Positions 38,668 to 61,696 of a stretch of DNA of 64,000 nucleotides are shown in pieces (the stretch's first letter is position 1; every line of letters starts with the position of its first letter). The notes under the pieces are model-generated. The model did not search any database and was not told the origin of the DNA. It saw nothing but the letters and a program-made list of their open reading frames with translations. Location: contig NC_091977.1 in NCBI RefSeq assembly GCF_044704955.1, positions 992,001-1,056,000 of the forward strand, in the 5' to 3' direction. The translations under genes were made by a program, and so were the position numbers. Source of the stretch: Pristiophorus japonicus. Lineage: Eukaryota.

Positions 38668-38755
38668 ATGAGTCGACGATTTGTCTGCAGCAAAATGCCA
38701 GCTGGTTTGATGTTCAGTTTCTGTGTGTTTCTCCTTCCGTCTGTTCTCACACACA
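38668..38755 (+). CDS. Ig-superfamily receptor, signal-peptide exon
   Basis: MSRRFVCSKMPAGLMFSFCVFLLPSVLTH has a hydrophobic core; acceptor TTTCTTACAG ends at 38645; donor GTAAGT at 38756 is phase 1 and matches the next exon. Confidence 0.7.
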
Positions 38756-39176
38756 GTAAGTGTCTTATTTTCACCAATCACAGTTTTACTGTATCACTGT
38801 TTAATGAATTCATTCAGCGGGTATTCAGGAAGTACGTAAGGTCTATAGCCTCAAATTTCCCCAATGCCGTTTTTTAGCGTATTGCCAGAGTTACGCCTCA
38901 ACTCCAAAAAAATAAGTAGCAAGTTTCCCCGTTCTATTGTTTGAAATTGGGGCCACGCAGCCTGCCCTGTATCTTCAGGAGGTGGAGCCTAATGTCTCCA
39001 CCGAAAAAACAATGCCCCCCTTCTGCGCATGCGTGAAAAAAATGGACGTTTTTGACGTGATTGCTATGGGCGCGCATGTACAGGACAGCTCTCGGTCTGC
39101 TTTCGGCCATTTGTAAAGGACCAGTTGGGTGTGAGAACTTTAATTCTCATTGGAAAAATCCGAGCTGCAATACAAG

Positions 39177-41000
39177 ATGCAACGCGGCACAAGGACCTAG
39201 AATTCCTTACAGGGTGAAGTGGACGCACTAGTTACTGTGATTGAGGCCAGATGGCACGAGCTGGACACCAGCAGAGGTCACATAAAAGTTTCACCAAAAG
39301 AAATGAAGAAACGCTGGAACCAACTTGCAGAAGATTACGGTGCAATGCTGACCACCCCGAGGTCTGGAGGTCGGTGCAGAGAGAAGTGGCAGGACCTTGG
39401 TCAAGTAGTCAGTGTAAGGAATATTTTCATTTATTCAATGGAATTGCAATTGTAAATGTGACCAGCTGCATGTCCCACCCAGCAGAAAGACACCCTCCCT
39501 CAAAAGTTATGTTTTCATCTTTGCAGAGGAAGCTGGCACACAACAAAAGGGAAAGAACTCGAACAGGAGGAGCCTGGTAAACCTGCACCCACTGACACCC
39601 TTGGAAGAGAGGCTCACTGCTTTGATGGTCCTGCCTGGAGAAAAGCAATCACCACGACACAAGCTGGGCCCACACTCGAGGGAGAGGGTAAGTCCTGCAA
39701 ATTCCACAGTCTGCCTTTGCTAAATGTTAAGTACCGCGCGGGCTAGCCACGCTTCGGTTCATGGGGATGTCTCCATCAGCTACACTTCAGTTGATGCAAT
39801 GTGCTATCATTCATCGTGGTCCTTCAAATCAGCCTGCTGCCTGCACTGTGTGAGCCTACTCCTACCATCCACCCTGGCCCCTCCTCTGCTGCTAACCATT
39901 TGTCTGTTCTGTTATATTTTGCAGAACTTGAGGCCAACCTTGACGATGCAGAAGATTGAGACGCGGACGAGACAATCCCACCTTCCAGACCAAGAGCATG
40001 AGGGTGAGGGGGAGGGGTTGTACTCACTCTGGAGGAGGTGCAGGTGTCCCCCATTGAGGTGCCAACCCTTTTCCTGAGTGGTACGAGTGTTGCTGGGACA
40101 TTCCATGGGTTCCCACAGTCCGAGGCTGCGGGTCCCAGTGGGATGTAGTGAGCCACACCCAGGGTCCCACTGTCCGAGGCTGTGGGTCCCAGTGGGATGT
40201 AGTGAGCCACACCCAGGGTGAGGAGGGGAAGGAGAGCTCGACAGCGCTCTCCTCAGCTGCAGGATCTAACAGATGTGGTTCAGATGATGACAATGAGTGC
40301 GGAGAGCATTGACCTTACACGATCACTCCTGGACACCAATAGTGGGGTGGGTGATGAGGTATCAGGACTGTCGGGAGAAGTAACAACACTCTCAGTAGAA
40401 ATGGAAACACTGCGGGAACATGAGGGAGGGAGTTTCGCAGGTGGCTGATACATTGTCGGTGAACATGAGGGAGGGAATGTCACAGGTAGGTGACACACTG
40501 TTAGTGAACATGAGGGAGGGAATGTCACAGGTAGGTGACACACTGTTAGTGAACATGAGGGAGGGAATGTTGCAGGTAGGTGACACACTGTTAGTGAACA
40601 TGAGGGAGGGAATGTTGCAGGTAGGTGAGACGCAGTCGGGGCACATGAGGGAGGGAATGTCGGAGTTAGCTGCTGCAATAGGGGAACGCGCTCAGTCCCT
40701 GCGCCCATTGACAGAATCAGTTGCCACTCCCACTCCAATCCCCAGACCAGCCTCTGAAGGGGCCCAAGTCGGGCCTTCTACATTACCGCCCCTCCCCCCA
40801 CCCCCCGACCCCCCCATCAAGAAGTGCGCAATATCCGAGATGTTCGAAAGAATAAGCTTGGTACCAACCCAAGAAACGATGCGTGTCACCAACACCAAGT
40901 GCAGCGGGCGGTCTGAGAATAAGGTGGAGGAGAGATGGGTGCTGCCTTTCTTTGCTGCTGCTGTTCTTTTTATTATTGCTGTTACTGTTGTCACTGTTCT
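39177..41000 (+). pseudogene. Harbinger Myb/SANT-like DNA-binding gene, three exons (39177-39413, 39527-39687, 39925-~41000)
   Basis: KKRWNQLA...RSGGRCREKWQDL | RKLAHNKRERTRTGG; GT-AG introns; in-frame TAG at codon 8 and later disruptions; 45-bp internal repeat at 40418-40660. Confidence 0.8.
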
Positions 41001-41328
41001 CAAATTAAACATTTTTGTAAGTTATATAAATTTACAAGTTTCAAAGTTTCAAAGTGATCTTAAAGTTTTTAATGATCTTAGAGTTTGAAGTGATCTTAGA
41101 TTTGTCAGCATTGTTAAAGTTTGTAAGTGATCTTAACTGAAAACTTTAAAGTTTGATACAAGAATATTTTTATTAAAGGTAAGTACAAACAAATGTTTCT
41201 TAAACTTTTGAATAAAATATATTTTAAATTATAACTGAATCATTGCCATTATTTGTTCCATTACTAACACAAGATTTTGAAGTAAACAAGAATCATTTCC
41301 ATGATTTGTTCCATTAACACAATTAACA

Positions 41329-42670
41329 TTACGGAATAGTTGCCGCTGATCCCTCGGCAGCAAAGTGTTCATGGATGAGCTGCTGGTGCAAGGCTCGAGC
41401 AATCGTTAAAGGAGCACGAAGGCCCGCTCTCCTCCGCCATCGTACTCTGGGTTCANNNNNNNNNNNNNNNNNNNNNNNNNNNNNNNNNNNNNNNNNNNNN
41501 NNNNNNNNNNNNNNNNNNNNNNNNNNNNNNNNNNNNNNNNNNNNNNNNNNNNNNNNNNNNNNNNNNNNNNNNNNNNNNNNNNNNNNNNNNNNNNNNNNNN
41601 NNNNNNNNNNNNNNNNNNNNNNNNNNNNNNNNNCATCATCATCAGCCACTCTCACCTCAGGTGGGTCTTCGCTACCAGCTGCTGCTGCCTCATGACTAAG
41701 TTATGCAGCATGCAGCACACAACAGTGAACTGACCGACAATCTCAGGGGAGTATAGCAAGTAGCCTCCAGAATGGTCCAGGCATCGGAAACACTGTTTCA
41801 AGATGCCAATGGTCCTCTCTATTATGCTGTGCGTCGCAATGTGCGGCATGTTGTATTCCCGGTCAGCTTCCGTCCGGGTTATACACAAGGGCATTATGAG
41901 CCAGGTGGCAGGCCGTACCCTTTGTCTCCCAGTAGTCAGTTCTGCCCTTCTGGCTGCTGCTGAAACATGGTAGATATAGCGCTCTTGCATAGGATGAATG
42001 CATCATGGGTGCTCCCAGGGTATCTTGCATCAACTGACATGATGCGATTCATATCGTCACACACGAGTTGCACATTAATGGAGCGGAAGCCTTTTCTGTT
42101 CCTTTCCAACTCGCATTCCTCCCAAGATGCACGCAAGGCGATGTGGGTACAATCAATATTGCCCTGTACTTTTGGGAAGCCAGCAATCCTGGAGAAGCCC
42201 ACAGCCCTTTCACGCATTGCCTGGGTGGACATGTAGTCATTCCTCCGGGCATATACTGCAGCAGTCACCTGTCGAATGCAGACATGTGTTGCATGTTGAG
42301 AAATGGCGCACACATCCCCAGTTGTAGCTGGAAACGATCCAGATACATAGAATGAAAGTGCAGCTGGAACCTTCACTTCAACTGACAAAGCAATCCTCCT
42401 GACGCTTCCAGGTTGCAGGTCTGCTTTCACTAACTCACAGATCTCAGTTACAACTTTTTTGTGGAAACGCAGCCTTCTGACACAGTCTGCATCACTCAGG
42501 TGCAGGTACTAACACCTGTCTCAATATACCCGAGGTGGGTAAGGCCTCCTGCCCATCATCCTACATGTTCTGAGGTTCCTCACACGATGGTGTCTAATCA
42601 ATTGTCTCCTCCGCAGCACCATCATGCAGAAGGCTTGCACGTAGTATGACATTGTCACTATTGCCCCCAT
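41329..42670 (-). pseudogene. Harbinger (HARBI1-like, DDE_Tnp_4) transposase, frameshifted
   Basis: GFPKVQGNIDCTHIALR, SINVQLVCD, YPGSTHDAFIL, IERTIGILKQCFRCLD. Confidence 0.92.
41456..41633. other. Assembly gap (178 N)
   Basis: Run of N. Confidence 1.
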
Positions 42671-43604
42671 GATTAAATTGTATCTTTGCAAGAAGCTCAA
42701 AATGACAGGCAGGACAAGTTTCTTTGTTGTCTCGCTCCCCAAGGTCAATGTCCCAGTATGGACCACACCCAGGTCTGAGCATGTGCAATGGGTTTGCATA
42801 GATCGGGAACCTCCCCCCGCTGGATTTATTTGATGCAGAGTGACATAGTGTAAGGGTTCTCATCCCTTCAGTTCAGATTCCACACCCCCCGCCACCCCCC
42901 AGCCCACCCCGCTGGGCTTTTCGAGCCGAGCCCCGAGCCCCTGTGTGCGGGCGAGGGACTGATTCTGCCGGTTGACGCTCCGACCCTCGAGCCCGGTTTG
43001 GAGATGTCCGGTGGGGGCGTGGCACTTTAAAAATTATCCAAACTTAAAGAATTGCACGAAAGCTCCATTCTCTGTATCTTCAGTTGGACAAATGAAGCCC
43101 GATGATGTGTATTTATGTGTTCGTGACTCCCTCCAAAACTTCACCGAAACACAACGGTGCTTTTCTGCGTTGATTTTTTGACGTGCGCTGGTTTTTTGTA
43201 AGTGACCAGAAGGTTTTTTAGGAGTGGCCACATTCGCTGTCCTCGGAGAAATGGAAGTTGGCCAAACTTGCATAATTGTGTAAAAATGACACAGACATCA
43301 GGTTACTATGTCTCAAACAAACCGTAACTAACTGAGTTACGCTGGCACACAATCTTTAAAATTTAGGCCAAAAAAACGGCACAAATCACTGGGGAAAATT
43401 GAGACCCATAATTTTCATGTCCCTGCTCCTTTAGAATCAGAGACTCATCGGGGCTGAAATTGGGGAGCACCACGTGTGGGCTGTTAACTTTTAAAAGTTT
43501 AAAAAATTAGTTCCAAACGCGAATGATTTCAAACTTTTACAACATTTTCCGTTTGCCCAGTGGGCAGTAAGGTTCCACTTCCTTCCTGGAGCGCGATGGG
43601 CAGT

Positions 43605-44630
43605 GGGCAGGGGGAGGGGGCACTGGGGGGCACACTGGGCACTGGGCTGGGGGGCACACTGGGCACTGGGCTGGGGGGCACTGGGGGCACACTGGGCACT
43701 GGGCTGGGGGGCACTGGGCACTGGGGGGCACACTGGGCACTGGGCTGGAAGGCACACTGGGCACTGGGGGGCATACTGGGCACTGGGGGCACACTGGGCA
43801 CTGGGCTGGGGGGCACTGGGGGGCACACTGGGCACTGGGCTGGGGGTACACTGGGCACTGGGCTGGGGGGCACTGGGGGGCACACTGGGCACTGGGCTGG
43901 GGGGTACACTGGGCAATGGGCTGGGGGGCACACTGGGCACTGGGCTGGGGGGCACACTGGGCACTGGGCTGGGGGGCACACTGGGCACTGGGCTGGGGGG
44001 CAGACTGCGCACTGGGCTGGGGGCACACTGGGCACTGGGCTGGGGGGCACACTGGGAAATGTGCTGGGGGGCACACTGGGCACTGGGCTGGGGGGCACAC
44101 TGGGCACTGGGCTGGGGGGCAGACTGCGCACTGGGCTGGGGGCACACTGGGCACTGGGCTGGGGGGCACACTGGGCAATGGGCTGGGGGCACACTGGGCA
44201 CTGGGCTGGGGGGCACACTGGGCAATGTGCTGGGGGCACACTGGGCACACTGGGCACTGGGCTGGGGGGCACACTGGGCACACTGGGCACTGGGCTGGGG
44301 GGCAGACTGCGCACTGGGCTGGGGGCACACTGGGCACTGGGCTGGGGGGCACACTGGGCACTGGGCTGGGGGCACACTGGGCACTGGGCTGGGGGGCACA
44401 CTGGGCAATGTGCTGGGGGCACACTGGGCACACTGGGCACACTGGGCACTGGGCTGGGGGGCACACTGGGCACACTGGGCACTGGGCTGGGGGCCACACT
44501 GGGCCGGGGGGGTAGCGGGGGGGGTCACTGATCTGGTGGGGGGTGCACACTGTGCCGGGGGGGTAGCGGGGGGGGGTCACTGATCTGGTGGGGGGTGCAC
44601 ACTGGGCCGGGGGGTAGGGGGGGGTCACTG
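43605..44630. repeat. G-rich low-complexity tandem array
   Basis: Built from GGGCACT, GGGCT and GGGGGGCACACT units. Confidence 0.95.
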
Positions 44631-44674
44631 AGTAGAGCCGTGGAGCAGAGACTTTGCAGAAAGCAGCGGTCCCA

Positions 44675-45538
44675 GTACCGACCCTGGGGAACACCACTGT
44701 GTACCGATCCTGGGGTACACCACTGTGTACCGACCCTGGGGAACACCACTGTGTACCGACCCTGGGGAACGACACTGTGTACCGACCCTGGGGAACACCA
44801 CTGTGTACCGACCCTGGGGAACGACACTGTGTACCGACTCTGGGGAACACCACTGTGTACCGACCCTGGGGAACACCACTGTGTACCGACCCTGGGGAAC
44901 ACCACTGTGTACCGACTCTGGGGAACACCACTGTGAATCGACCCTGGGGTACACCACTGTGTACCGACCCTGGGGAACACCACTGTGTACCGACGTTGGG
45001 GAACACCACTGTGTATCGACCCTGGGGTACACCACTGTGTACCGACCCTGGGGTACACCACTGTGTACCGACTCTGGGGAACACCACTGTGAATCGACCC
45101 TGGGGTACACCACTGTGTACCGACCCTGGGGAACACCACTGTGTACCGACGTTGGGGAACACCACTGTGTATCGACCCTGGGGAACACCACTGTGTACCG
45201 ACGTTGGGGAACACCACTGTGTACCGACCCTGGGGAACACCACTGTGTACCGACCCTGGGGAACACCACTGTGTACCGACCCTGGGGTACACCACTGTGT
45301 ACCGATCCTGGGGAACACCACTGTGTCCCGACACTGGGGAACACCACTGTGTACCGACCCTGGGGTACACCACTGTGTACCGATCCTGGGGAACACCACT
45401 GTGTACCGATCCTGGGGTACACCACTGTGTACCGATCCTGGGGAACGACACTGTGTACCGATCCTGGGGTACACCACTTTGTACCGACCCTGGGGAACAC
45501 CACTGTATACCGATCCTGGGGTACACCACTGTGTACCT
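44675..45538. repeat. 26-bp minisatellite, ~33 copies
   Basis: Unit ACCACTGTGTACCGACCCTGGGGAAC. Confidence 0.96.
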
Positions 45539-46059
45539 CCCTCCAGTGCGATAAACAACTGTTGAGTTGATCTTCTCGCTGCAGATGGTCAGTAAATGTT
45601 TAGGGACCAGTATCGCCCCCCAGAGGTAACAACGGGAGGTGCTCAGGAGGCCAATTCCTCGACCTCTGTGTTTAAACTTCACTGTGTATACATTGAGCAT
45701 GGAACACTTTTATTTTTGGTAACTGTGATGTGAATTGCTATTTAATCTAGAGTCACAGATACTTGGAATTTATCGCTTCAGCTAAGTTCATTTATGAACA
45801 AGTAAATTTAAAAATTGTTACAATGGGGATTGTACTGTTACCCTTGAGTATCCAATAATATTTGTTTACTGCTGTGCTTAGAGTGAAGGCACCTCATGAA
45901 TCAAAGGAGAAAGTGCAGTTCTGTTATTGGTAGTGATGGACTATTGACTGAATGATGTGACCACTGTCACCAGAGGCCACCTGGAAGTATCGGAATATAT
46001 TAACCTGAAGTACATTTGTCACTGTCACAGCCACAGTTGACCAGGAGTTGTAACAGTAA

Positions 46060-46713
46060 CATGGGGGTACTGGTGCATGAAACACAAAAGGATAGTAGGT
46101 AGGTACAGCAAGTGATCAGGAAGGCCAATGGTATCTTGGCCTTTATTACAAAGGGGATGGAGTGTAAAAGCAGGGAAGTCTTGCTACAGTTATACAGAGT
46201 ATTGGTGAGGTCACACCTGGAATACTGCGTGCAGTTTTGGTTTCCATATTTTTACGAAAGGATATACTTGCTTTGGAGGCAGTTCAGAGAAGGTTCACTG
46301 GGTTGATGAGGGGGTTGACTTATGAGGAAAGGTTGAGTCGATTGGGCCTCTACTCATTGGAATTCAGAAGAATGACAGGTGATCTTATCGAAACATGTAT
46401 AAGATTATGAGGGGGCTTGACAAGGTGGATGCAGAGAGGATGTTTCCACTGATAGGGGAAACTAGAACTAGGGGGCATAATCTTAGAATAAGGGGCCGCC
46501 CATTTAAAACTGAGATGAGGAGAAATTTCTTCTCTCAGAGGGTTGTAAATCTGTGGAATTCGCTGCCTCAGAGAGCTGTGGAAGCTGGGACATTGAATAA
46601 ATTTAAGACAGAGATAGACAGTTTCTTAACTGATAAGGGAATAAGAGATTATGGGGAGCAGGCTCGAGGGGCCGTATGGCCTACTCCTGCTCCTATTTCT
46701 TATGTTCTTATGT
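46060..46713 (+). mobile_element. CR1-type LINE 3' fragment
   Basis: ORFs 46112..46306 and 46395..46742; CTTATGTT tail. Confidence 0.88.
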
Positions 46714-46716
46714 TCA

Positions 46717-47075
46717 TAGTGGTTATGTTATTGGGCCAGTAATCCAGAGGCCTGGACAAATGATCCAGAGGCCAGAGTTCAAATCCCACCACGGCAACTG
46801 GGGAATAAAATATTCAGTGAGTTAAAATCTGGAATGAAAAGCTATTATCAGTAATGGTGACCATGAAACTATCTGATTGTTATAATCCCCATCTGGTTCA
46901 CTAATGCCCTACCCGGTCTGGCCTACATGTGACTCCAGACCCACAGCAATGTGATTGACTTTGAACTGCCCTCTGCGGTTCAGGAAGGCGACTTACCATC
47001 AGCTTCTCACGGGCAATTAGGGAGGGCCCATAAAGGGTGACCTTGGCAGTGATGCTCATATCACAAGAATTAATT
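46717..47075 (+). mobile_element. tRNA-derived SINE-like element
   Basis: A-box-like TAGTGGTTA, B-box-like AGTTCAAATCCC, and a 3' end shared with the LINE tail family. Confidence 0.55.
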
Positions 47076-47384
47076 CAAAAAAACATTTTTACAATTGCTG
47101 AAGTACAGAGAAAAGGAATAATCACTGGCCACAATGATCTAACAATACTTTGGGGGAAAGCTTGCCCTGTGCCCTGATTGGGGCAGTAAGTTTCTGGGGC
47201 CAGGACTTTGAGCGCCCGGAATTGCCCCACACAGGAAGTGGAACACAATCTCACGCGCTGCACTTCCTTTGGGGGTGGGACCCGGAGCACTATTGGGGAA
47301 CTGAAGGAAGCTCTATGTGGATGCTCCACACAGTGTGCTGACACACTTCAACGCCTCTCCCCTTGCTCTCTGCAAGGCCTCAGA

Positions 47385-49350
47385 TGTGGTTGACCCTTAA
47401 CTGCCCTCTGCAATCACATAGCAAGCCACTCAGTTGTAACAAACCGCAATGAAAAACAATAATAAGAATAAAACCGGACGGACCACCCGACATCGACCTT
47501 GGCACTGGCTTCGGGCACGATAACGGCCCACCCAGCCCAGCCCACCCGGCAAAGTCCTCCTCACCAATGTCTGGGGACTTGTGGTAAAATTGGGAGAGCT
47601 GTCCCACTGACCAGTCAAGCAACAGCCTGACATAGTCATACTCACACAATCATACCTTTCAACCAATGTCCCAGACTCCTCCATCACCATCCCAGCGGCA
47701 GGACAGACCCACCCGAGGTGGTGGCTCAGTGGTATACAGTGTGGAGGGAGTGGCCCTGGGAGTCCTCAACATTGACTCCGGACCCCATGAGGTCTCATGG
47801 CTTCAGGTCAAACATGGACACGGAAACCTCCTGCTGATTCCCACCGACCGCCCTCCCTCAGCTGATGAATCAGTTCTCCTCCATGTTCAACACCACTTGG
47901 TAGAAGCACTGAGGGTAGCAAGGGCACAGAATGTACTCTGGGTGGGGGACTTCAATGTCCATCACCAGGAGCGGCTCGGTAGCACCACTACTGACCGAAC
48001 TGGCCGAGTCCTGAAGGACATAGCTGGCAGACTGGGCCTGCGGCAGGTGGTGAGAGAACCAACACGAGAGAGCAACCTACTTGACCTTGTCCTCACCAAT
48101 CTACCTGTCACAGATGCATCTGTCCATGACAGCATTGGTAGCAGTGACCACCACACAGTCATTGTGGAGACAAAGTCCCATCTTCACACTGAGGACACCC
48201 TCCATCGTGTTGTGTGGAACTACCACCGTACTCAATGGGATAGATTCAGAACAGACCTAGAAGATCAAATCTGGTCATCCCTGAGGTCCTGTGGGCCATC
48301 AGCAGCAGCAGAATTGTATTCCACCACAATCTGTAACCTCATGGCCCGACATATCCCTCACTCTACCATTACCATCGAGCCAGGAGACCAACCCTGGTTC
48401 AATGAGGAGTGGAGAAACAGCATGCCAGGAGCAGCACCAGGCGTACTTGAAAATGAGGTGCCAACCTGGAGAATCTGCAACACAAGACTACATACATGCT
48501 ACACAGCGGAAGCAGCATGCTATAGACAGAGCTAAGCGATCCCACAATCAACGGATCAGATCAAAGCTCTGCAGTTCTGCCACATCCAGTCATGAATGTA
48601 ACAACTGGAGGAGGAGTCTCCATGAATATCCCCATCCTCAACGATGGCGGAACCCAGCACGTGAGTGCAAAAGACAAGGCTGAAGCGTTTACAACCATCT
48701 TCAGCCAGAAGTGCCAAGTGGGTGATCCATATTGGCCTCCACCTGAGGTCCCCACCATCACAGAAGCCAGACTTCAGCCAAGTCGATTCACTCCACGTGA
48801 TACCAAGAAACGGCTGAGCGCACTGGATACAGCAAAGGCTATAGGTCCCGACAGCATCCTGACTGTTGTGCTGAAGACTTGTGCTCCAGAACTAGCCTCG
48901 TCTCTAGCCAAGCTGTTCCAGTACAGCTACAACACTGGCATCGACCTGACAATGTGGGAAACTGCCCAGGTAAGTCCTGTCCACAAATGGAGGACAAATC
49001 CAATCTGGCCAATTACAGCCCGATCAGACTACTCTCAAGGTTTCTTCGGCAGCAACTCGCAAACCCGCGACCTCTACCACCTCGATAGACAAGTGCAGGA
49101 GGCACATGGGAACACCACCACCTCCACGTTCCCCTCCGAGTCACACACCATCCTGACTTGAAATATATCGGCGTTCATTCATCGTCGCTGGATCACAATC
49201 CTGGAACTCCCTCCCGAACAGCACTGTGGGAGCACCTTCACCACACGGACTGCAGCGGTTCAAGAAGGCGGCTCACCACCACCTTCTCAAGGGGCAGTTA
49301 GCGATGGACAATAAATGTCGGGCTTGGCAGTGACGATCACATCCCATGAA
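47385..49350 (+). mobile_element. Non-LTR retrotransposon (APE endonuclease plus start of RT), internally deleted
   Basis: RGGG, WVGDFNVHH, PTRESNLLDLVLT, SDHHTV, KAIGPD, NYSPIRLLS. Confidence 0.88.
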
Positions 49351-49652
49351 TACATTTTTTTAAAGATATTTGGAGCCTTTATATCCTGTAACCTGGAATG
49401 AACTATTTCCTCTCTTTTTATGTTGATAATTGTAGTAATGCTGTATGTTTTATCACTCTAGTAATGGATACACTGAATGTATAATGGAATTGTTCTGTTT
49501 TTCTCTGTAATAGTGACTGCAGTGAAGGTAACATGATCAGTTAAATATACAAATATGACTGTAAATAAATGAACTATATAAATAATTACTAACATGGATT
49601 AAGGAATTGTGATTTGATATCAAAGTGCTGACATTGTTTCTCTTTCCAACAG

Positions 49653-49994
49653 GAAACACCAATCATATTTATTTTTTAGATGAGAGAGCTGAAATTCCAT
49701 TAAAAGGACCAGACAATCCTGGGGATGGCCCTGTTGTCTGGGAATGGAAAGCACACTCAGGGCAAGTAATGCAGCGGCTGGTTACTTTTCACAAGAGGAG
49801 TTCGGGCTGGTGGGACGCACAATGGAATGATCAGACTGGAGATCAGGACTTGTACAGTAAAGCACGGCAGGATCCTGGTACCATCAATCTGAGAATTTAC
49901 AATCTCACATTTAAACTTGCGGGATCGTTCATCTTAACTCAAACACAGCCGAGTAATAAAACCCTGAAACTGTACGAACTATTTGGGATCAAAG
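49653..49994 (+). CDS. Ig-superfamily receptor exon, D1 (V-like, no cysteines)
   Basis: Acceptor TTTCTCTTTCCAACAG, donor GTGAGT, 342 nt, phase 1/1; C-strand VVWEW, E-strand NLRIYNL, F-strand LAGSF. Confidence 0.8.
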
Positions 49995-51244
49995 GTGAGT
50001 GGGACAAAGAGCAGAAAAAGGTCAACAAAACGATTCTCGGTAAATAATTTCACATGTAATGATGAGAGATTGCCAGGACCACGTGAGATTGATATCACCC
50101 AGTGCAGAGAGCAGCTCTCATTAAACAGGGGAAAGATTTTGTTCGTTGTTTCTCCTGAAATAGTCAACATGAGTAAAAATGTGTTGATAATTTCACCAGA
50201 AATAGCAAACGGAGGAATCTAGCCCACAGAGAGTATTATGGTCTGTACACTGACGCACTCCCTGTAAGATGCAGTGAACACTGTTACCACAACAGTAGGT
50301 CACTGTAGTAATAGGCCTCAGCACTGTGGGACAGGTATACGATGGGCCAGTATCACTGCTCCTGATTGGTGCCCACTGAACCGTTAGATGTGGCACTTGG
50401 TTCAGGTCCCAGAGGATGTGGGGTGTCTGTGGAACTTGTGCTCTGCCAAAGAGTTAACGCCTTCAGGAAAGCGGGAAGGAACATGACGGAGAAAAATAGG
50501 TATATTGTGTCAATTCAATAATATTTAAAATCTTTAGTGTAAATAAATCAAAATCTTTAAATGGTGCCAACAAAAGATGTTGCTGAACAGCTTCACATCC
50601 TGGTTGATTGATGGGTGGAACATCTAAATGAGGCGAAGGTCACCGTCAAATGAACTTGATACAAAATATCATCCTATCCTGAAATATCATCATGGACAAA
50701 ATATGATCGTGACGGTACTGTCCCTGGACCATTACATAGGAATACATCGGATATCATCATCATAGGCGGTCCTCGAAACGCCAAAAAAAGGACGAGTTCA
50801 CAGGTGTTTCAATGAAGGACCTAATATTCCCGATCCCGAACTCCATGTTGAAGGGTGGAAGATGTCAGTGCGTGGATTTTTTAACGTGGGGTGACCGTTG
50901 CACACCAGCCACCACACGGACTTGACAGAGCTAGGTCTTGGTCCAGTGGCAAGGATTACCCAAGACAACTGGAGACCTGCTCTGCTGCACGGACCTAGTG
51001 CGCACACATATCGCAGTGTGGGCTGGACCATGCTGCCCCTGGGCCCCTGGCCCTGAACTCATGCCTCCCCTGGGCCCCGATCACCTCCCTCCACAGTCTC
51101 TCACAGCTCCTTCGCCCCGACCTCGCTGCTCCTGCTGTATCTGCCCACGCTCCAATCACTGACCTGGACCTTGATGACTTCACTCTTGGTTGCCGTCGCC
51201 CTCCTGCACCAGCTCGCGCAGTACCTTGTCGTGGTATGCAGCCA

Positions 51245-51760
51245 CACTGTCCATGGCCATCGCTTGCTGCTACTTTTATGGCCTGACCTGCCGCTGATGT
51301 TCCCTCGCAGGTCGGGGTCTCCACACTGCCCATGGCCATCGCTCACTGCTCCTTTTATGGCCCGACCTGCCGCTGATGTTCCCTCGCAGGTCGGGGTCTC
51401 CACACTGTCCATGGCCATCGCTCACTGCTCCTTTTATGGCCCGACCTGTCGCTGATGTTCCCTCGCAGGTCGGGGTCTCCACACTGCCCATGGCCATCGC
51501 TCACTGCTCCTTTTATGGCCCGACCTGCCGCTGATGTTCCCTCGCAGGTCGGGGTCTCCACACTGCCCATGGCCATCGCTCACTGCTCCTTTTATGGCCC
51601 GACCTGCCGCTGATGTTCCCTCGCAGGTCGGGGTCTCCACACTGCCCATGGCCATCGCTCACTGCTCCTTTTATGGCCCTGACCTGCCGCTGATGTTCCC
51701 TCGCAGGTCGGGGTCTCCACACTGCCCATGGCCATCGCTCACTGCTCCTTTTATGGCCCC
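51245..51760. repeat. 79-bp minisatellite, ~6 copies
   Basis: Near-identical ORFs offset by 79 nt; unit CCATGGCCATCGCTCACTGCTCC...CCACACTGC. Confidence 0.93.
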
Positions 51761-51899
51761 GAGGGGTCACTAAGGGGTTTCGGAAACATAGAATGAGCCA
51801 TTGATCTCCAACCACTAAATTGATTGTTAATATCAAACATCCATCTGCCGCCTGTGGTTGTATGGTGGCTATATATCAGTTACAGATAGAGTATCCCTT

Positions 51900-52715
51900 C
51901 CACTTCTGCAACACCGCCCGACTCTTCCCCTACTCCAGCCTATCTGCCGCTAAAACTCTCATTCGTGTATTTGTCACCTCCAGACTTGACTATTGCAATG
52001 TTTTCCTGGCCGGCATCACACCCTCTACCCTCTGTAAACTTCAGCTTGTTCAAAACTCTGATGTCCAATTTCTATCCAACACCAAGTTCCACTCATCCAT
52101 CACCCTTGTTCTTGAGGACCTACATTGGTTCTGGATCCCACAATTAATCTAATTGAAGATTATCATCCCTGTGTTTAAATCCTTTCATGGCTTCACCCTT
52201 AGGTCACTGTAACCTCCACTAACCATGCAACCCATCCCTTCCATGCCCCATAACTGCATTCCTCTAACTCTCGCCTCTTGTAAATCCCCTCCTTCATCTC
52301 ACCATCGGTGACCACGCCTTCAGCTATCGGATATACAGAACATAAACAGGCCATTCGGCCCAACCAGTCCAGTTTATGCTCCACTGGATCCTCCTCCCGT
52401 CTTACCTCATCTAAATCTATCAGCATAACCCTCCATTCCCTTCTCCCTCATATGCTTATCCAGCCTCCCCTTAAATACATCGATACTATTCACTTCAACC
52501 CCTCCCTGTGGTAGTGAGTTCCACATTCTCACCACTCTCTGGGTAAAGAAGTTTCTTCTGAATTCCCCATTGGATTTCTTGGGTGACTATCTTATATTGG
52601 TGGCCTCTAGTTCTGCTCTTCCCCACAAGTGGAAACTCTCTCTCTGTATCTACTCGATCAACACCCTTCATCATTTTAAAGACCATTATCAGGTCACCCC
52701 TCAGCCTACTCTATT
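51900..52715. mobile_element. L2 3' fragment (+, ~51900-52330) and CR1 3' fragment (-, ~52335-52715)
   Basis: FVTSRLDYCN, LQLVQN, LHW; FKMMKGVDRVD...SRTRGH. Confidence 0.8.
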
Positions 52716-53579
52716 CAATAGACAAGAGAAAAGAAAATTGTTCCTGAGGTGTTGGCCCAAACTGCACCAGCACGAGTTGACCATGATAGAAAGTCCACCC
52801 ATTTACACGTGTTAGTGGCACTCATGGTACATCGTGCGTGGTACATGGGGAATGCCACATGGGTCGGGCACCAGTGTGTTGGGTGCCAGCACCTAATGGA
52901 TGCCACCATTGTATTGCCTGGCATTGGAAATAAAGTCCCTTTTGAAGATTTGATTTTTACTTGTTATGTTGTTGGTGGGACTGAACGTCAGGGTGAACAT
53001 TTTTAGAACAAGTGTCTCCTGAAGTTCCATTCCTCGTGGAGGCTCAATGATTGGAGCTCTGCTCAGGAGCATTCTGGGAGCACACTCATTTAAATAATGT
53101 CTGGGACTGTAATGACCTTTGAGGTGGGTTTTGTGAACAGGCTCCCAGTGCATGTGTTGGCTGGTCTTACTGCAGTGTGCTCGGCCCATAGAGAACTGAG
53201 TAGGACTGGAGCCCTCTCCATGTCTGATAATATGGTGCTACATTTCTAGCACACCCTCCTCTGGTGAGTTTCTTCACCTGACCATCCCCAAATACCATCC
53301 ATACAGTGTAACCTTGACCTGACCCCGGATACTCCAGCAGGGTCAGGGGTAAAGTTCATCGACCCCACTCTGCCTCACTTACATTGGTGGAGCAGGACCG
53401 AGAGATTTCGGGCCCAATATTTTACTGATTAAAATGCACTGTGTGTAACCTGGCCTGACTCTTTAATGCAGCAAGTTACAAGTATTGATAATGGGCACAT
53501 TCTACTGTCAGTTAGAACCTAATCATTGGATTGTACATGTCACGACGTACACTAAATCTTATTGATCTGTTTTTCACAG

Positions 53580-53849
53580 TTGAGAGAAGTCCACAGAGAG
53601 CTGTGGTGGGCAGTGACGTTACACTCAGCTGTACCATCTCCAAACTCTCAGATACAGTCAGTCTTCAATGGAAACACAGAGACTCATCTCAGCAGGACAG
53701 GAGGAACACTGATCAGATCCGACTAAATAACACAGTCTATCTGATAGTCAGACACGTTGCAGTAGAGGATCAGGAGTTGTACACGTGTGAAGTGCAGGAA
53801 AATGGATCCAGTATTCTCACAGGAAAAGCACATTTCTCTGTGTACCCCA
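53580..53849 (+). CDS. Ig-superfamily receptor exon, D2 (C2/I-like)
   Basis: Acceptor TTTTTCACAG, donor GTAAGT, 270 nt, phase 1/1; GSDVTLSC...LQW...EDQELYTCEV. Confidence 0.92.
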
Positions 53850-55332
53850 GTAAGTGCAGTTACCTCACAGTGGATATTAAAGAGTTACTAATATAAAACT
53901 GTTACATATAAAGTGGAACCATACATTACAACCATCAGCACCATGCCCACAGTCAGCATGTGGGGGCCTGGTGCACATATCAGCATTGAACACAAACTGG
54001 CCTCTCTCCCCTCAATGTCACTTCTAACCCAGTTCTGCTGCTATTGGAAGTGATTCCAGGCGCTGCATACTCTCAGCTTCAAATAAGCACTGAGCCGGGA
54101 GCAGGACGAAGGGAAGAGGGAAGGGCAGGGAATCAGTGGCCATGAACGGGAGAGGGAAGGATGGAAATGTTGGGAATGTAGAGGAGAGATGGTGGGCAGG
54201 GGGAAACGACAAAGGCTGGGAGTGGGGCTTTGGGGGAGGGAGAGAGGAAAAGCTGGGAGTGGGGCTTTGGAACAGAAGATAAGAATGTGTATTTGTGTGA
54301 AGTGTAGAAAAAATACTCTTATTAAAATAGCATCAAAACTATTGATGTGGATCTGGGTAAGCCCAGAACTACCTTACAGTAGATATTAAAGAGTTACTGA
54401 AATAACACTGTTCCACACAATGTCCAGGGAGCACAGAGACATCAGATGCTTTTACTACAGACTGGGCTGTATTTTCTCTTTGGAACATTGGTGTAAATAT
54501 AACATTGCAATACACTGGGCAAATATCAACAACCAGATCTTGATGGATTGGATAATAAATAGCTAAAGGGTTAAAGGTGAACAGAAACATTCTCACACAA
54601 CTCATCAATGACCATAACACAGAGACAATTATTTTCTAAATATGGTTCACTTTATTCACTGCAAGGGCACAGAATTACAGTCCAGCCCTGACTGACTACT
54701 CAGTGCTCTCCCAATACACACACATAGGGGACAATACTGAGTGACTTTGGTTGAACATCATTGGTCGTACCAGAAGTGTACAAACAGTTATGGTGCTGTG
54801 TGGTCGTTAGCATCTGATATCAATAGATTGGGAGTGGAGGGAGGGTGGGTGGTTATAATGTGGCCGGTTCTGTACAGGTAACTGAATGGGGAACCACTTC
54901 ACCAGCTGTTGAGAGGCAAGTGGAGGAGAGTGACAAGGCTGCAGTCAATGTTGGTTTATCTTGTCTAGAATTGTTAAAGTAAATGAAGCAGTTCAACACT
55001 GGAAGGTAGAAAATCTGAATTGCAGCGTTTTTTTAATAAATGGTACCGGAGATAAAACAAAAACAGAAAATGCTTTCAGTAACAGCACCTTGAAGAAAGA
55101 AATAAAACGATGCTTCACTGAGGAAGAATGAAGTGGACATCGGTATTAGTGAGAAAGAGAGGTGACTGAAAGCTTGGTCAGAGATAGGTTTTCAGTGTGT
55201 GTGTAGACAAAGTAGGAGGTTTTAGTGTGGGAGAGAATGTGGATGGGTCATTTTGACTTTGTGCAATAGTAAGTTATCTTTGTGAGATGTAAAATGTGTT
55301 TCCAATTCACTACCAGCTGTTTTACACTATCA

Positions 55333-58300
55333 CATAATAGAGCTCAACCTGGTGGACTACTGATCCACCTAGTGGACTACTGTGGTAATGTAACTACTCA
55401 CGTATATACAATAAAAGCATCATGTGACAAGGTCACCTGACAAGTTCCAGTACAGCCATCTTGTGTATGTGTGTGTTTGTGATGTTGTGAGGAAGATATC
55501 ACATTGGCGATGTAGGATGGGATTTCTGGATTCCCGAGCTGAAATTTTTTTGGTGGCTGTTCCAGCCAACCAGCAGAGAGACTTTGAGAGGTTCTTTGTT
55601 TTGCAACACAACTAAAAATCCAAGGTAAATTTCAAGCACACTGTTGACATTGCCAGAGTCCAGATGGCCACACCTATGGGAATAATAGGGTGCTTGGGTG
55701 AGTTCCAGCCTGACTGAGAGACTTTCGGAGCATACATGGAGTGGCTAGAAATGTTTTTCACCGCAAATAGTATCATCAAAGTCCCTGATGATGAAAACCG
55801 TAACCGGGTGGTGTTAGAAAGAAAACGGGCTATTTTCCTGACTTAATCAGGCCTGGAGGTGGATGAAACCCTGAAAAATGTGCTTGTTCCTGACAAGACA
55901 AAGGGCCCGCCACTGACGGAGATTGTTAGCACGACAGTCCTGAGCCCCTGGAAGTTGCTGAAAGTTAATGTTTTGGAATATGAAATCAATTCATTGACGA
56001 GAGTATCAGTGAGTACATTGTAGCTTTAAAAAAGCTTTCCATTCACTGTCATTTCGTAAACTTTCAGGACCAAGCATTGCGTGACCACATTGTCTGTGGG
56101 ATGAAAAATAAAGCAATCAGAAGAAAGTTGTTGACAACCCCTAACTTGACTTTTGATTTAGCTTGCAAGACAGCTATGTCGATGGGTATGGCAGACCAAT
56201 ATTCCTGAGAATTTCACGCCATTTCCAGTCTTCAGACAACCGAAGTGAATCGGCTTCAGGCTAGAAGTAAAAAGCAGTTGGGCCCCAAGGCCTCCGCAAC
56301 TGACCAAGGTAACAGTGCATTGAAGTCATGCTATCGGTGATTGGGACAACACATCGCTCAAAATTGTACGTATGTGAAGGCAGAATGTTTCTTCTGCAAG
56401 AAAACTGGATATCTTGCGAAGGCATGCCGACTGAAGGGTAAACTATCAGTAGAAATCACCAGAGACTATGTAGCATTGAACAGAAGCAACAGGATGAGGA
56501 GGTTCTGAAGACACACGTCATCAGGAGCACAACGGTACCTAACAACGATTCATGAAGTATCGTCATCCAAGTAGACGTTGCAGGAACCAGGATACCCATG
56601 GAAATCAACACTGGTGCATCCGTGAGCGTAGTACTGGAATTGTTATATCTCGACAAGTTGAGTGATTTTTCACTGGAAAAGTCAAACATAGAACTGCGAG
56701 GCTACTCAGGAGAGCAAATCCCTGTGGTAGGATGTATTACCGTACTGGTAAAATACAAGGATCAGTTTCAGAGCTTACCTCTCTTATTCATGGCAGGAGA
56801 CAAGCCTTAATAGGTAGAAATAGGTGGGGATCATTGAAACTGGATTGGAGTGAGATTTTTTGAGTTGAAACGAGATTTGCATCGAAGGATGATGTCATCA
56901 AACAGTATCCAAAGGTGTCCGTGAAACAGGCAGTGCAATCCTAGGTTTCAAGGTGAGTGTCAGGGTACAGAAGAATGCTAGACCAGTTTACTGCAAGCCA
57001 TATCCCATGCCATACGAACTCAAAGAGAAAGTTGATCAAGTACTCAAAAGACTAGAAACTGAGAACATTATCTCTAAAGTAGACCTAAGTATTGGGCTAT
57101 ACCCATTGTTGTTGTACCTAAGTCAGATGGTAATGCTGATGCTATGTCCAGGTTGCCATCCCCATCACAAGTTACACCCAATGAGGAAGAAGTGTTCTAT
57201 TTTTCATACATTGATCACTTGCCTGTCACAGCTGAAGAACTTGGTAGAGCAACTAAGCATGACTCAGTTATGTCAAAGGTGTATGATTGTATAGCAAATG
57301 GCTGGCCAAACCAGATATCAGAGAAAGATATTCATCCATACTTTGTCCATAGGAATGAATTATCAGTCGATAAAGATTTATCATGTGGGTGCAAGAGTAG
57401 TTATCCCAAATAAGTTCAGGTCCAAGTTGTTAGGAGATCTTCATGACCAGCACCTGGGAATGTGCCTGACCAAGAGTTTTGCACTCAGTTACTTATGGTG
57501 GCCAGGTCTAGGTAAAGATACAGAGTGCATCATCAGTCAGTGTACAATATGTCAATCGGTAAGCACGATATCACCATCAGTACCATTACAGCCATGGAAA
57601 TGGCCTCCCAGGGTGTGGCAAAAGTTACATGTAGATTTTGCTGAGCTAGAAGGACAACAATTGTTCATTGTGATTGATAATCATTCGAAATGGGTAGAAG
57701 TATTTCCGATGCAGAAAATAACAACAAATAAAACAATAGACAATTTGCAAATATTGTTTTCTTCATATGGTCTCCCAGAAGAAATTGTTTCTGATAATGG
57801 GCCGCAATTTTGTTCAGAAGAATTTTCACAGTTCATGAGCAGGAACAGTGTGAAACATACCAAGGTTCCACCTTACCACCCTGCTTCAAATGGTGCACCG
57901 AGTGCACAGTACAAATTGTAAAACCCTGTCCTCAACAAGCAAATATTGGATCCAAATCCAAAGAAATGGCAGTTGTCATTGGATCACAAACTAGCAAATG
58001 TTCTGATTATGTATCGTAATACTCCTCATACAACTACTGGTAGAACACCAGCAGAATTGTTTCTCAAACGACAACCACGAATCAGGTTCTCGTTGTTGAA
58101 GCCAAACTTGGCACAGTTAGTAGAAGGGAAACAACTAAGACAGAAAGAGAATCATGATAGAGGTAAAATAAGAGAGAGAAGTGTGAAATTAAATCAGAAG
58201 GTGAGAGTGAAGAACCATCACCATAATTGGTTAAAATGGTTACCAGGAAGCGTAGTGAGGATATGCGACTCTCGAACATATTTGGACAAGATGTTTGATC

Positions 58301-59952
58301 ATGGAAAGGTTAGGTTTGTTCACATTGATCATATTTTACCGACAGATGTGGAAGGAGTTGAAAGTTGGAATGATTCGATTATTTCTGATGAGACAGATAG
58401 TCTTATTACAAGTAGAGTACCAGTAGCAAATCCTACATCAGATGTACTAGAAACAAGTACAAGAGAAAGTCAGAATTTAAGTCTGAGTCTGAGTCAGGCA
58501 GACAGACAGTCTGAAGTTGTAGAGAGTCAAAATGTAGATCAAGGGTTGCCCTTGAAGAAAAACTCTCCTCAGGCTCAGCCTAGAATGAGTTTAAGTTCGA
58601 CACCAAGTTTGGAAAGATCTGTTCGAGAGTGAAGGTATCCTCTTCGAAACAGAAAACAAGTGGTAAAGTTTGATTTGTAAAAATGGAAAAATAAGTCTAT
58701 ATTTGTTGTGTTTAACCATGCAAATTATGTATGGTGATTGTTTAGAAACATAGGAAATAGGTGCAGGAGTAGGCCATTCGGCCCTTCGAGCCTGCACCAC
58801 CATTCAATATGATCATGGCTGATCATACAACTTCAGTACCCCATCCTGCTTTCTCTCCATACCCCTTGATCCCTTTAGTCGTAAGGGCCACACCTAACTC
58901 CCTTTTGAATATATCTAACGAACTGGCCTCAACAACTCTCTGCGGTAGAGAATTCCACAGGTTCACAATTCTCTGAGTGAAGAAGTTTCTCCTCATCTCG
59001 GTCCTAAATGGTTGCCCCTTATCCTTAGACTGTGACCCCTGGTTCTGGACTTCCCCAACATCAGGAACATTCTTCCTGCATCTAACCTGTCCAGTCCTGT
59101 CAGAATTTTATATGTTTCTATGAGATCCCCCTCATTCTTTTAAATTCCAGTGAATATAAGCCTAGTCGATCCGATAAGATTACTGCACAAGAGATTACTC
59201 GAGAAGATTAAGGGGCATGGAATTTGGAGGAGGATAGAAAACTGGATTAAAAGGAAGGTGAATAAAAAAGTAGGGGTTAAAGGCAGTTTATTTTTATTTG
59301 TTCCCAATGATGTGGGCATCGCTGGCAAGGCCGGCATTTATTGCCCATTCCTAATTGCCCTCAAAGGTGGTGGTGAGCCGCCTTCTTGAACCGCTGCAGT
59401 CCGTGTGGTGAAGGTGTTCCCACAGTGCTGTTGGGGAGGGAGTTCCAGGATTTTGACCCAGCGATGATGAAGGAACGGCCAATATATTCCCATGTCGGGA
59501 TGGTGTGTGACTGGGAGGGGAACGTTGAGGTGGTGGTGTTCCCTTGCACCTGCTGCCCTTATCCTTCTGGGAAGTAGAGGTCGCGGGTTTGGGAGGTGAT
59601 TTTGGAGAAGCCTTGGCGAGTTTCTGCAGTGCATCTTGTAGATGGTACACACTGCAGCCACGGTGCGCCGGTGGTGGAGGGAGTGAATGTTTAACGTGGT
59701 GTATGGGGTGCCAATCAAATGGGTGCTTTGTCCTAGATGGTGTCGAGCTTCTTGAGTGTTGTTGGAGCTGCATTGTTATGATTACTTCTTCATTAAGGGA
59801 GAAGTGTAATAGAGCTCCACTTAGTGGACTACTGTGGTAATGCAACTTCTCATGCAAATTCAATGCAAGCATCATGTGACAAGACATAACAAGTTCCTGT
59901 CGAGCCATCTTGTGCATGTGTGTGTCTGTGATGTGGTAAGGCAGATATCACA
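55333..59952 (+). mobile_element. Ty3/Gypsy element with both LTRs (55333-55503, 59805-59952); RT/RNase H deleted; nested LINE pieces at 58744-59772
   Basis: PBS TGGCGATGTAGGATGGG at 55505; PPT AAGGGAGAAG before 59805; gag, protease (EINTGASVS) and integrase (HVDFAE, VSDNGPQF, PPYHPASNG). Confidence 0.9.
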
Positions 59953-60309
59953 TTCACTATCACCTCTTTTACACTATCGCACAAGGCCAAATTACCCCCA
60001 TGTTTTTGAAAGAAAGTATCGTGATTGCCCCTTGGACAATAAGGAAAGGTTTTCCAATTTTCCAATCTTGTCAACTGCCAAGTTGTATTGCAAAAGCAAT
60101 TAAAATGACTCTGGGTTAGTCTTGCTGAGAAAATGTGAAGGCTTTAGTGGAAATAGTGAAAGAAATATCAGGAGAAAGAAAGAAAGTAACAAAGAAAGAA
60201 TAGAAAAGGCACAGGTATAAAGTCTGTGCAGAATGTTCAATACAGAAGGAGACAGATGCTCACTGTGAATGAACCACTCCACTGAATACAAACTGAGTAT
60301 CGTGAGCAG

Positions 60310-60522
60310 GTTATTGGTGAGTAAGGGCTGCTTGATAGCTCTGTTGACGACACCTTCCATCACTTTGCTGAAGATTGAGAGTAGACTGAAGGGGCGGTAA
60401 TTGGCTGGATTGGATTTGTCCTGCTTTTTGATTGTAGGACATACCTGGGCAGTTTTCCACATTGTCGGGTAGATCCCAGTGTTGTAGCTGTACTGGGACA
60501 GCTTGGCGAGAGGCGTGGCTAG
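60310..60522 (-). mobile_element. LINE RT fragment
   Basis: WKTAQVCP...NPANYRPFSLLS; same family as 47385-49350. Confidence 0.8.
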
Positions 60523-60642
60523 TTATGATAATCAAAACACAAAATAGTTTTATATAATTTTTGCCAATAATTATTCTGGCTTTTCTCTCTACCTTAGAAA
60601 CTGTTAAATTCTAACACGTTGTTCTCTGTCTCTCTATCACAG

Positions 60643-60984
60643 ATTTATATCAAGAGAGTTACACACTTTATCGGTCAGGCACAGATCGCAGTGAACTCGA
60701 CCTGATTTGCTATTCTGTTGCCTCTACTTACAATGCTGCTGCATGGACCTGGAGCTCACATCATCTTCCAAATCAGGAGAAAAAAATAGCAACTGCTTCG
60801 AAATCTCAGCCTATCGATGTGAACAGGACTGACTTTGGGAGTCGACTGGTGCCCACAGTGGGACATTTTAATGGTTATATCTTCAGTGTGAGGATTGTCC
60901 CTGTACTGTTTGACGATGCAGGAGTTTACACATGTTCTCTGGGATCACGTAAATTTGTGACCATTAAACTAATCACAGTTAAAG
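60643..60984 (+). CDS. Ig-superfamily receptor exon, D3 (V-set)
   Basis: Acceptor TCTCTATCACAG, donor GTAGGA, 342 nt, phase 1/1; LDLIC...AAWTW...FGSRL...DDAGVYTCS. Confidence 0.92.
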
Positions 60985-61062
60985 GTAGGACACAGAATGT
61001 TGCTGGTGTTTTCGATGATAAAGTCATTGTGTAAAAGCTGAATGATTTTCCTGTTTCCACAG

Positions 61063-61332
61063 TCACAGCTGAACCATCTGATGCAGAGACTGAGGGAGAC
61101 ACCGTTACCCCGACCTGCTCTGTGTCTGATGTCACTGAACCAATGAGACTGGTTTGGATCAATAGTGACGGCAGAACTGTTGGAGAGAAAACATTGAATG
61201 GACGGAATGGGGAAGAGAAATCATTGCAACTGATTATTCAGAAAGCTGACAGAGGCAGAGGGAACTGGATATGTGCTGTGTTTTATCAAAACCGGCCCCA
61301 GGTTTTAGTCCCGTACTATCTGGAGCCCAGTG
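61063..61332 (+). CDS. Ig-superfamily receptor exon, D4 (C2 with W-x-C); the gene probably continues past the window
   Basis: 78-nt upstream intron, acceptor TTTCCACAG, donor GTAAGT, 270 nt; EGDTVTPTC...LVW...GNWICAV. Confidence 0.92.
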
Positions 61333-61696
61333 GTAAGTGACTCAGGGTTTGCTCTTTAATCTTATAATCTCCACAGGAAATTCTTGTCACTTATTGTTCT
61401 TGTTGCCTGGAGTAACCCCTCCTTTATATCCTGTGTGTGAAGCTGTACAGTGTTTCAGAGCCTCAGGAAATCTACCCTGAGATAACTCAGCACAGCCTGG
61501 GATCGAGCGAGGAACTTTCCTGGTCTGTGTGCCTCAACTACGCTCTTGGTAAACTCACTGAGACAGGACAAGCATTTAAGTTTGACAATCCAGTGGTACA
61601 GAAGTCATTTCTGTTGGTTTTCTGACACAGAATCAATCAGAATGCTCCGAAAAATCAGAGCAAATAATTCCCAGCTGCAAATATTGCAATTGAAAG

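Follow-up and report, generated by a model that had tools for sequence, protein, structure and literature searches.

A sawshark gene with four immunoglobulin domains and a membrane lysine as a likely activating member of a paired receptor family with a CD4/LAG-3-like ectodomain

What kind of receptor is encoded by a gene whose four immunoglobulin (Ig) domains follow the order known from CD4 and LAG-3, but which resembles neither closely? The question is raised by a 64,000-nucleotide stretch of the 5.9 Gb genome of the sawshark Pristiophorus japonicus (contig NC_091977.1, positions 992,001 to 1,056,000; G000:C1:992001-1056000), referred to below as the window. An initial annotation, made from the sequence of the window, had described five exons of a V-C2-V-C2 receptor, considered it non-canonical kin of CD4 and LAG-3, and suggested a sister family. 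Our analysis indicates that the gene encodes a single-pass V-C2-V-C2 receptor with a lysine in the membrane and a short tyrosine-free tail, a likely activating member of a paired family with a CD4/LAG-3-like ectodomain. The gene is real, intact and of the activating type; it belongs to a paired family, apparently without a name, whose members occur in sharks and rays as well as in bony fishes and a frog.

All five exons of the initial annotation were reproduced. They comprise 1312 nt in a stop-free frame of 437 amino acids (aa), with four of four introns being of the GT-AG type and in phase 1. Exon 1 (38668..38755; like all exons of the gene, on the plus strand) contains the start codon and a hydrophobic leader, probably a signal peptide, with a modelled helix at residues 12-22. 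Exon 2 (49653..49994) encodes D1, which contains no cysteine at all and has no Pfam match; in the structure model it folds as a V-type Ig domain, with the canonical disulfide missing. The remaining domains each match Ig families and carry the canonical cysteine pair only: D2 (exon 3, 53580..53849) is of C2/I-type, with C161-C213 and a Y-x-C motif in the F strand (Pfam Ig_3, 4.6e-9); D3 (exon 4, 60643..60984) is V-type by Pfam (V-set, 2.6e-4) and by the structure model, with C256-C331; D4 (exon 5, 61063..61332) is C2-type, with C366-C418 and W-x-C in the F strand (Pfam ig, 8.5e-5). The V-C2-V-C2 layout proposed at the outset is therefore backed by Pfam for D2-D4 and by the model for D1, which lacks both Ig cysteines; the W-x-C motif, ascribed to the C2 domains in general, was found in D4 but not in D2, so this match had been overstated. 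The five N-glycosylation sequons were present as described (NLT113, NKT131, NNT193, NGS218 and NRT294).

The 437 residues are identical (437/437) to the database protein UniRef100_UPI00398E7C45 (P0056; 'uncharacterized', P. japonicus, 511 aa), a record which possibly stems from the same assembly and is thus not independent evidence of expression. The N-terminus of P0056 matches the exon 1 peptide, which also resembles the N-terminus of nurse shark AGQ17915.1. Intron 5 starts at 61333 and continues past the end of the window (61333..64000 within it). Two exons located outside the window complete P0056 exactly, giving a gene of seven exons that extends ∼21.6 kb past the end assigned initially. 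Exon 6 (G000:C1:1069479-1069588) encodes a membrane helix with Lys458 (modelled helix 445-478), and exon 7 (G000:C1:1074798-1074911) a short tyrosine-free tail and the stop codon. All seven exons and their splice sites are intact. A membrane lysine is the mark of adaptor-coupled activating receptors. The 43-aa tail of P0056 has no tyrosine, and neither an ITAM (immunoreceptor tyrosine-based activation motif) nor YxN was found in it; scanning of the tails of P0056 and its paralog P0057 for Cx(C/H), the LCK clasp, and for (F/Y)xxL(D/E) revealed neither motif. The search for membrane and cytoplasmic exons recommended in the initial annotation was thus successful, and these exons point to a paired activating/inhibitory multigene family, not to a co-receptor or a G6F-like ITAM receptor.

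Two features of the exon borders may generate variant products. Read-through of the exon 5 donor (61333-61340) would add Gly-Lys-stop, as in the paralog models P0052, P0054, P0058 and P0062, and such forms match 437/439-aa paralog models without a membrane helix; a soluble form or decoy is a possible product. A second acceptor 6 nt downstream of the first (61063-61068) would yield isoforms short of two residues.

A search of the genome with the D3 exon gave 67 matches among 75 candidates scored. The 12 closest copies (96-100% identity) comprise ten on C1, the contig of the window (0.6-3.0 Mb), and two on C1893 (perhaps a duplicate or a haplotype that has not been placed); many further D3 matches form a second, larger cluster on C4 (24.4-26.8 Mb). 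Membrane exons are of two types. The lysine type was found 16 times (seven in the close set, nine on C4) and a neutral type 12 times (five and seven, respectively), one of the 12 with a stop. The neutral type is joined to a tail that carries two immunoreceptor tyrosine-based inhibition motifs (ITIMs), IHYGSI and VIYAQI, and the ITIM paralogs P0057 and P0065 have ectodomains 96-97% identical over the 437 aa. Ten of the 12 close genes are arranged as five tail-to-tail pairs, each of one activating-type and one ITIM-type gene, while the other two are activating-type and unpaired. The window gene faces an ITIM gene, the last tail exon of which lies ∼60 kb away.

Every Ig exon of the 12 close copies (48/48, D1-D4) is open with AG/GT borders, and their coding DNA is 97.7-100% identical. 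Over 1224 nt, the activating and inhibitory types show no fixed difference and share 17 variable sites; 237 of 435 site pairs fail the four-gamete test, corresponding to at least 10 exchanges among the copies. Amino acid variation falls from D1, the most variable domain (17/113), to D4 (3/89), and the variants Y312, I313 and Q403 are private to the window copy. Established paired receptors include KIR2DS, SIRP-beta and TREM. Several features expected of such systems were seen here: similar ectodomains, a charged helix with a short tail versus an ITIM tail, clustered genes, and homogenisation of the ectodomains between the two types, to which recent duplication contributes.

The same division recurs in other species. 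All 120 matches listed in a profile search came from sharks, rays or a chimaera, with one to four four-domain units per protein, and both membrane types were present in 15 of 22 cartilaginous-fish species (151 proteins), in a count whose neutral class includes models without ITIMs. A HMMER search against 1.84 billion representatives gave 303 matches at E 0.001, of which 150 were listed. Twenty of them were looked up: four were CD4 or LAG-3, and 16 were further family members, in every case with a representative that has no functional name. These members are from bichir, sturgeons, bowfin, eels, tarpon, a mormyrid, cyprinids, a characin and one frog (13 in total), from cartilaginous fishes (two) and from an unnamed source (one); no amniote was among the 20 matches, and no search aimed at amniotes was made. 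Bowfin and sturgeon likewise have the G-Y-L-x-V-K helix, and ITIM tails are present again in teleosts and the frog. An ectodomain tree was built from 49 N-terminal units, 35 of them neutral-type and 14 lysine-type, after removal of eight isoforms that were near-duplicates and of rows lacking a type or a complete unit. Along this tree the type label switches 13 times, which is not below the number obtained by shuffling (mean 12.2-12.3). Since both types also persist across species, this suggests an old age for the signalling ends, with binding ends that track the lineages of species.

Several observations on family members stand apart from these counts. A third membrane type, with an arginine helix and a short tail without ITIM, was found in P0006, P0067, P0068 and P0069 (Mobula) and in P0125 (Hemitrygon), as well as in the unnamed P0222, P0235 and P0239; the resemblance of the ray arginine helix to the inhibitory type suggests that an activating form may have arisen a second time. 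Some members carry names in the database ('obscurin-like', 'VCAM1-like', 'kita-like', 'CD276 homolog') that were treated as automatic labels. Judging by accession numbers, our guess is that AGQ17915.1 of nurse shark and the CD4-like KC707916 were deposited side by side. A term search of the available part of the PMC3964593 supplement gave no match.

By analogy with known paired receptors, the membrane lysine would pair with an acidic, DAP12-type ITAM adaptor and ligand binding at D1 would then lead to cell activation, and the ITIM twins would recruit SHP-1/2 and inhibit. Exchange between facing activating and inhibitory genes may keep the two binding ends matched. Our best guess is that the inhibitory twin would recognise a self ligand exploited by pathogens through mimicry or binding, with the activating twin as a counter-receptor. 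The rule of a charged membrane residue in activating receptors is stated in the available text of bioRxiv 2021.06.11.448072. Precedents, as described in the portions available to us, exist for exchange between oppositely oriented pairs in Xenopus CEACAMs (PMC5112662) and for homogenised, oppositely oriented pairs in KLRC, Ly49 and PIR (PMC3210942). With these systems the sawshark genes share near-identical binding ends, opposite signalling ends, opposite orientation and signs of exchange; they differ in scaffold, and here the shared block spans four domains and their introns, not the ligand-binding exon alone.

Splicing was examined in assembled contigs from three public runs of one study, the run type of which is not on record; the exon 3-exon 4, exon 4-exon 5 and exon 6-exon 7 joins were compared with them. 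The 78-nt intron between exons 4 and 5 was spliced out at GT..AG in contigs of all three runs. The exon 3-exon 4 join occurred in contigs of two of the three, carrying paralog alleles, and the exon 6-exon 7 join at the predicted GT..AG in one contig (run X11). For the D3-D4 stretch, no RNA data set was listed as containing it, which says nothing about expression. The junction check proposed initially gave spliced contigs at three sites, but did not tie them to the window copy.

This is one of several results that weigh against the proposed role of the gene. The spliced contigs are not assignable to the window copy, whose own exon 3-exon 4 allele was absent among the 15 joints listed. Introns and flanks of the close copies are also ∼98% identical, and part of the ectodomain similarity therefore needs no more than recent segmental duplication. 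The ratio of nonsynonymous to synonymous polymorphism (pN/pS) among the 12 copies is ∼1 (D1 1.03, D2 1.53, D3 1.32), which does not support positive selection. Type labels derive from automatic gene models, in which fusion of neighbours or mislabelled rows are possible, and two catshark activating genes group together in the tree rather than with ITIM genes. As regards signalling, a search of the genome for the DAP10 family, itself uninformative, found nothing, and the part of PMC4016189 that was available reports that no FcR-gamma homolog was found in sharks.

Part of this evidence would also fit a window copy that is a redundant recent segmental duplicate, either a decoy or non-working, within a family that is itself functional. 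The near-identity of coding DNA and introns among the 12 copies, the pN/pS near 1, the presence of stop-bearing D3-like fragments in the cluster of the window copy and reads that are not assignable to this copy all favour such an explanation. We nevertheless consider it improbable, given the seven intact exons with their splice sites, the absence of stops from all 48 Ig exons and the presence of the activating exon 6-exon 7 join in a contig.

The fragments themselves are five stop-bearing D3-like exon remnants on C1 (positions 380118, 825214, 1232501, 1919101 and 3105005; 63-65% identity), which probably belong to the duplicated block. Outside the two clusters, additional matches to D1 and D3, many of them stop-bearing, are located on C470, C925, C2201, C2931, C7, C2494 and other contigs.

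How close is the activating/inhibitory family to CD4 and LAG-3? A profile of 56 family sequences was colinear over 378 columns with a profile of 13 CD4/LAG-3 sequences (probability 99.95, E 1.9e-37); the latter set was drawn from our own search matches, so independent checks weigh more. In a PDB search, the 56-sequence profile matched titin first and then LAG-3 (7.3e-17), with no CD4 chain among the best 60 matches listed; a 10-sequence profile placed PD-L1 and CD276 above LAG-3, all of them weak. The AlphaFold model (pLDDT 87, pTM 0.79) contains four Ig sandwiches. Strands run continuously through D1-D2 and D3-D4, a likeness to CD4 and LAG-3, for which continuous strands across paired domains are described as a rare trait in the available text of PMC10768021. 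Foldseek returned LAG-3 or CD4 in six of the best seven rows, with low whole-chain TM-scores (0.25-0.32). With VIA-align, rat CD4 D3-D4 superimposed over 170 of 177 residues (2.5 Å, Z 13.2) and was the only two-domain match below 3 Å among the 50 rows listed; the D1 model matched the V domain of NITR11 (Z 13.7, rmsd 2.2 Å, 105 residues), in a ranking where many single V domains share Z values of 13-14 and CD4 is not placed first. In the Atlas, a query from D3 to the end gave the CD4 (0.97), g6f-like (0.94) and LAG-3 (0.93) clusters, and the whole ectodomain generic Ig clusters only.

A tree of 46 rows split the family (32 rows) from five CD4, seven LAG-3 and two ITAM rows at 100/100. Neither an outgroup nor a shark CD4 is included in this tree, and therefore sisterhood is not proven; four of its 12 CD4/LAG-3 rows are database-named, the rest being assigned by tail motif. 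The likeness includes the V-C2-V-C2 order and the W-x-C motif of D4 (W in 53/56 rows). In contrast, W-x-C is missing from D2 of the family (W in 0/56 rows), while at least two such motifs occur in 12 of the 13 CD4/LAG-3 rows. The family also differs in having no D1 disulfide, no LCK clasp and no FxxL, but a lysine helix or two ITIMs instead, and in forming multigene clusters and a clade of its own, with one to four tandem four-domain units per protein. From sequence and model comparison, CD4 and LAG-3 are the nearest named kin (by profile, PDB, Foldseek and Atlas), and the family occupies its own branch beside them and is not a member. The interpretation given in the initial annotation is in this respect supported.

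The colinear four-domain match and the Atlas hits to CD4 and g6f-like are also what would be seen if the gene encoded a divergent co-receptor of CD4/LAG-3 type or a G6F-like thrombocyte receptor, signalling via its own tail. This explanation is largely refuted by the tail, which has neither Cx(C/H), (F/Y)xxL(D/E), ITAM nor YxN, and we regard it as very improbable. The 100/100 split argues in the same direction, as do the dozens of copies: one CD4 and one LAG-3 per genome is the default, and both have already been identified in sharks, according to the available text of PMC10768021. With coelacanth CD4 as the query, the sawshark genome yielded two weak matches, both to generic Ig exons, and CD4 was not located. 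G6F-like has four Ig domains and one membrane pass in common with the window gene, but signals through an ITAM and YxN of its own tail as described in the part of PMC3528668 available, whereas the tail here has no tyrosine; this distinction is one of description. Two unnamed proteins, P0192 and P0198, are built of repeated V-C2 units, several of whose C2 domains show W-x-C, and end in an ITAM-like tail. The CD4/LAG-3 profile gives them a higher score than does that of the sawshark family; they may be related to G6F-like, with additional units.

A known family could also account for the clusters: the DICP receptors, known from bony fishes, of which the clusters would be the branch in cartilaginous fishes. 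As far as described in the available text of bioRxiv 2021.06.11.448072, DICPs consist of D1-D2 or D1a-D2a-D1b-D2b and occur in inhibitory, activating and secreted forms, so that both groups are clustered two- or four-Ig receptors with ITIM, charged-helix and secreted versions. According to the same source, however, DICP domains keep C23 and C104 and in most members DICP-specific cysteines as well, whereas D1 here has no cysteine, and activating DICPs of bowfin use arginine instead of the lysine found here. DICPs are further described as being MHC-linked (MHC, major histocompatibility complex), while none of 41 MHC class I matches in the sawshark genome lies on C1 or C4 (22 of the 41 are on C19, by our own count). 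The name DICP was on none of the 20 relatives looked up and on none of the ten Atlas clusters listed. A new lineage of DICPs is therefore an unlikely identity for the family, which is set apart here by published description and not by direct sequence comparison. Skates also possess modular domain immune-type receptors (MDIRs), with CD300/PIGR-like Ig domains. The MDIR name appeared on no match in the protein searches, in which no MDIR sequence was compared.

A literature search, with subscription journals largely outside its coverage, found no published description of the paired receptor family; a term search of PMC11372145 gave no match. Natural-killer-type and myeloid paired receptors of sharks are poorly known, and a 2014 survey, in its available part, reports no homologs of leukocyte receptor complex-type or Fc receptors in sharks (PMC4016189); here, a large and intact paired family is present, with an activating membrane motif common to sharks, rays, sturgeon and bowfin. 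The scaffold of CD4 and LAG-3 would thus be used for innate-style on/off signalling as well, which bears on the origin of both, and the defined twin genes make a direct test of MHC or pathogen binding possible. More speculatively, and in our view rather doubtful, the family may be a third branch among the kin of CD4 and LAG-3, of ancient origin, that recognises MHC molecules and works as a diversified, paired 'missing-self' system: a shark counterpart of KIR/Ly49, already present in the ancestor of jawed vertebrates and still retained by bony fishes and frogs. If this were true, CD4 and LAG-3 would be single-copy specialisations beside that branch.

The genomic surroundings were also analyzed. 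A search of the genome for the MHC class II beta family found nothing and was uninformative. MLF and TPI are markers of the CD4/LAG-3 locus, as known from human and teleost maps. Genes for both were located on C2543, C6, C10 (stop-bearing) and C4026, two of these contigs being possibly unplaced, and not on C1 or C4. Of 148 candidate exons in the two 200-kb flanks of the C4 cluster, 136 were scanned. One flank contains ArfGAP and PH exons (L052:3733-3915 and L055:6777-7016; C4 24.24-24.28 Mb), which we take to be probably an ARAP gene and a useful synteny anchor. At the other edge lies a MAG/sialoadhesin-like V-set exon (L034:9400-9753, ∼26.829 Mb; E 6.9e-17 to MAG), followed by a C-terminal integrase fragment of the murine leukaemia virus (MLV) type (L039:8731-8985, C4 ∼26.88 Mb; PF18697, 1.3e-7). 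An AF-4 match in the C4 flank was rejected as low-complexity sequence. On C3 (316.6-319.3 Mb), nine MHC class I matches each hold the whole alpha1-alpha2 in one open frame (419-777 aa); these are apparently intronless class I genes, apart from the C19 cluster.

The introns of the window gene are filled with transposable elements, as the initial annotation had stated. Intron 1 contains a DDE transposase fragment on the minus strand (41939..42508; PF13359, DDE_Tnp_4, 1.5e-9) and an endonuclease fragment of a long interspersed nuclear element (LINE) on the plus strand (47636..48532; PF14529, 7e-10), and intron 3 an integrase fragment of a long terminal repeat (LTR) retroelement on the plus strand (57295..57918; PF00665, 1.9e-14); none of the three is part of the receptor. 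A LINE with endonuclease and reverse transcriptase domains occupies the minus strand of intron 5 (61608-63511). Upstream of the gene, the long open reading frames at positions 1-38000 of the window appear by eye to be pieces of LTR retroelements or LINEs, or tandem repeats, the largest tandem array (12600-14669) consisting of 49 copies of a 42-bp unit.

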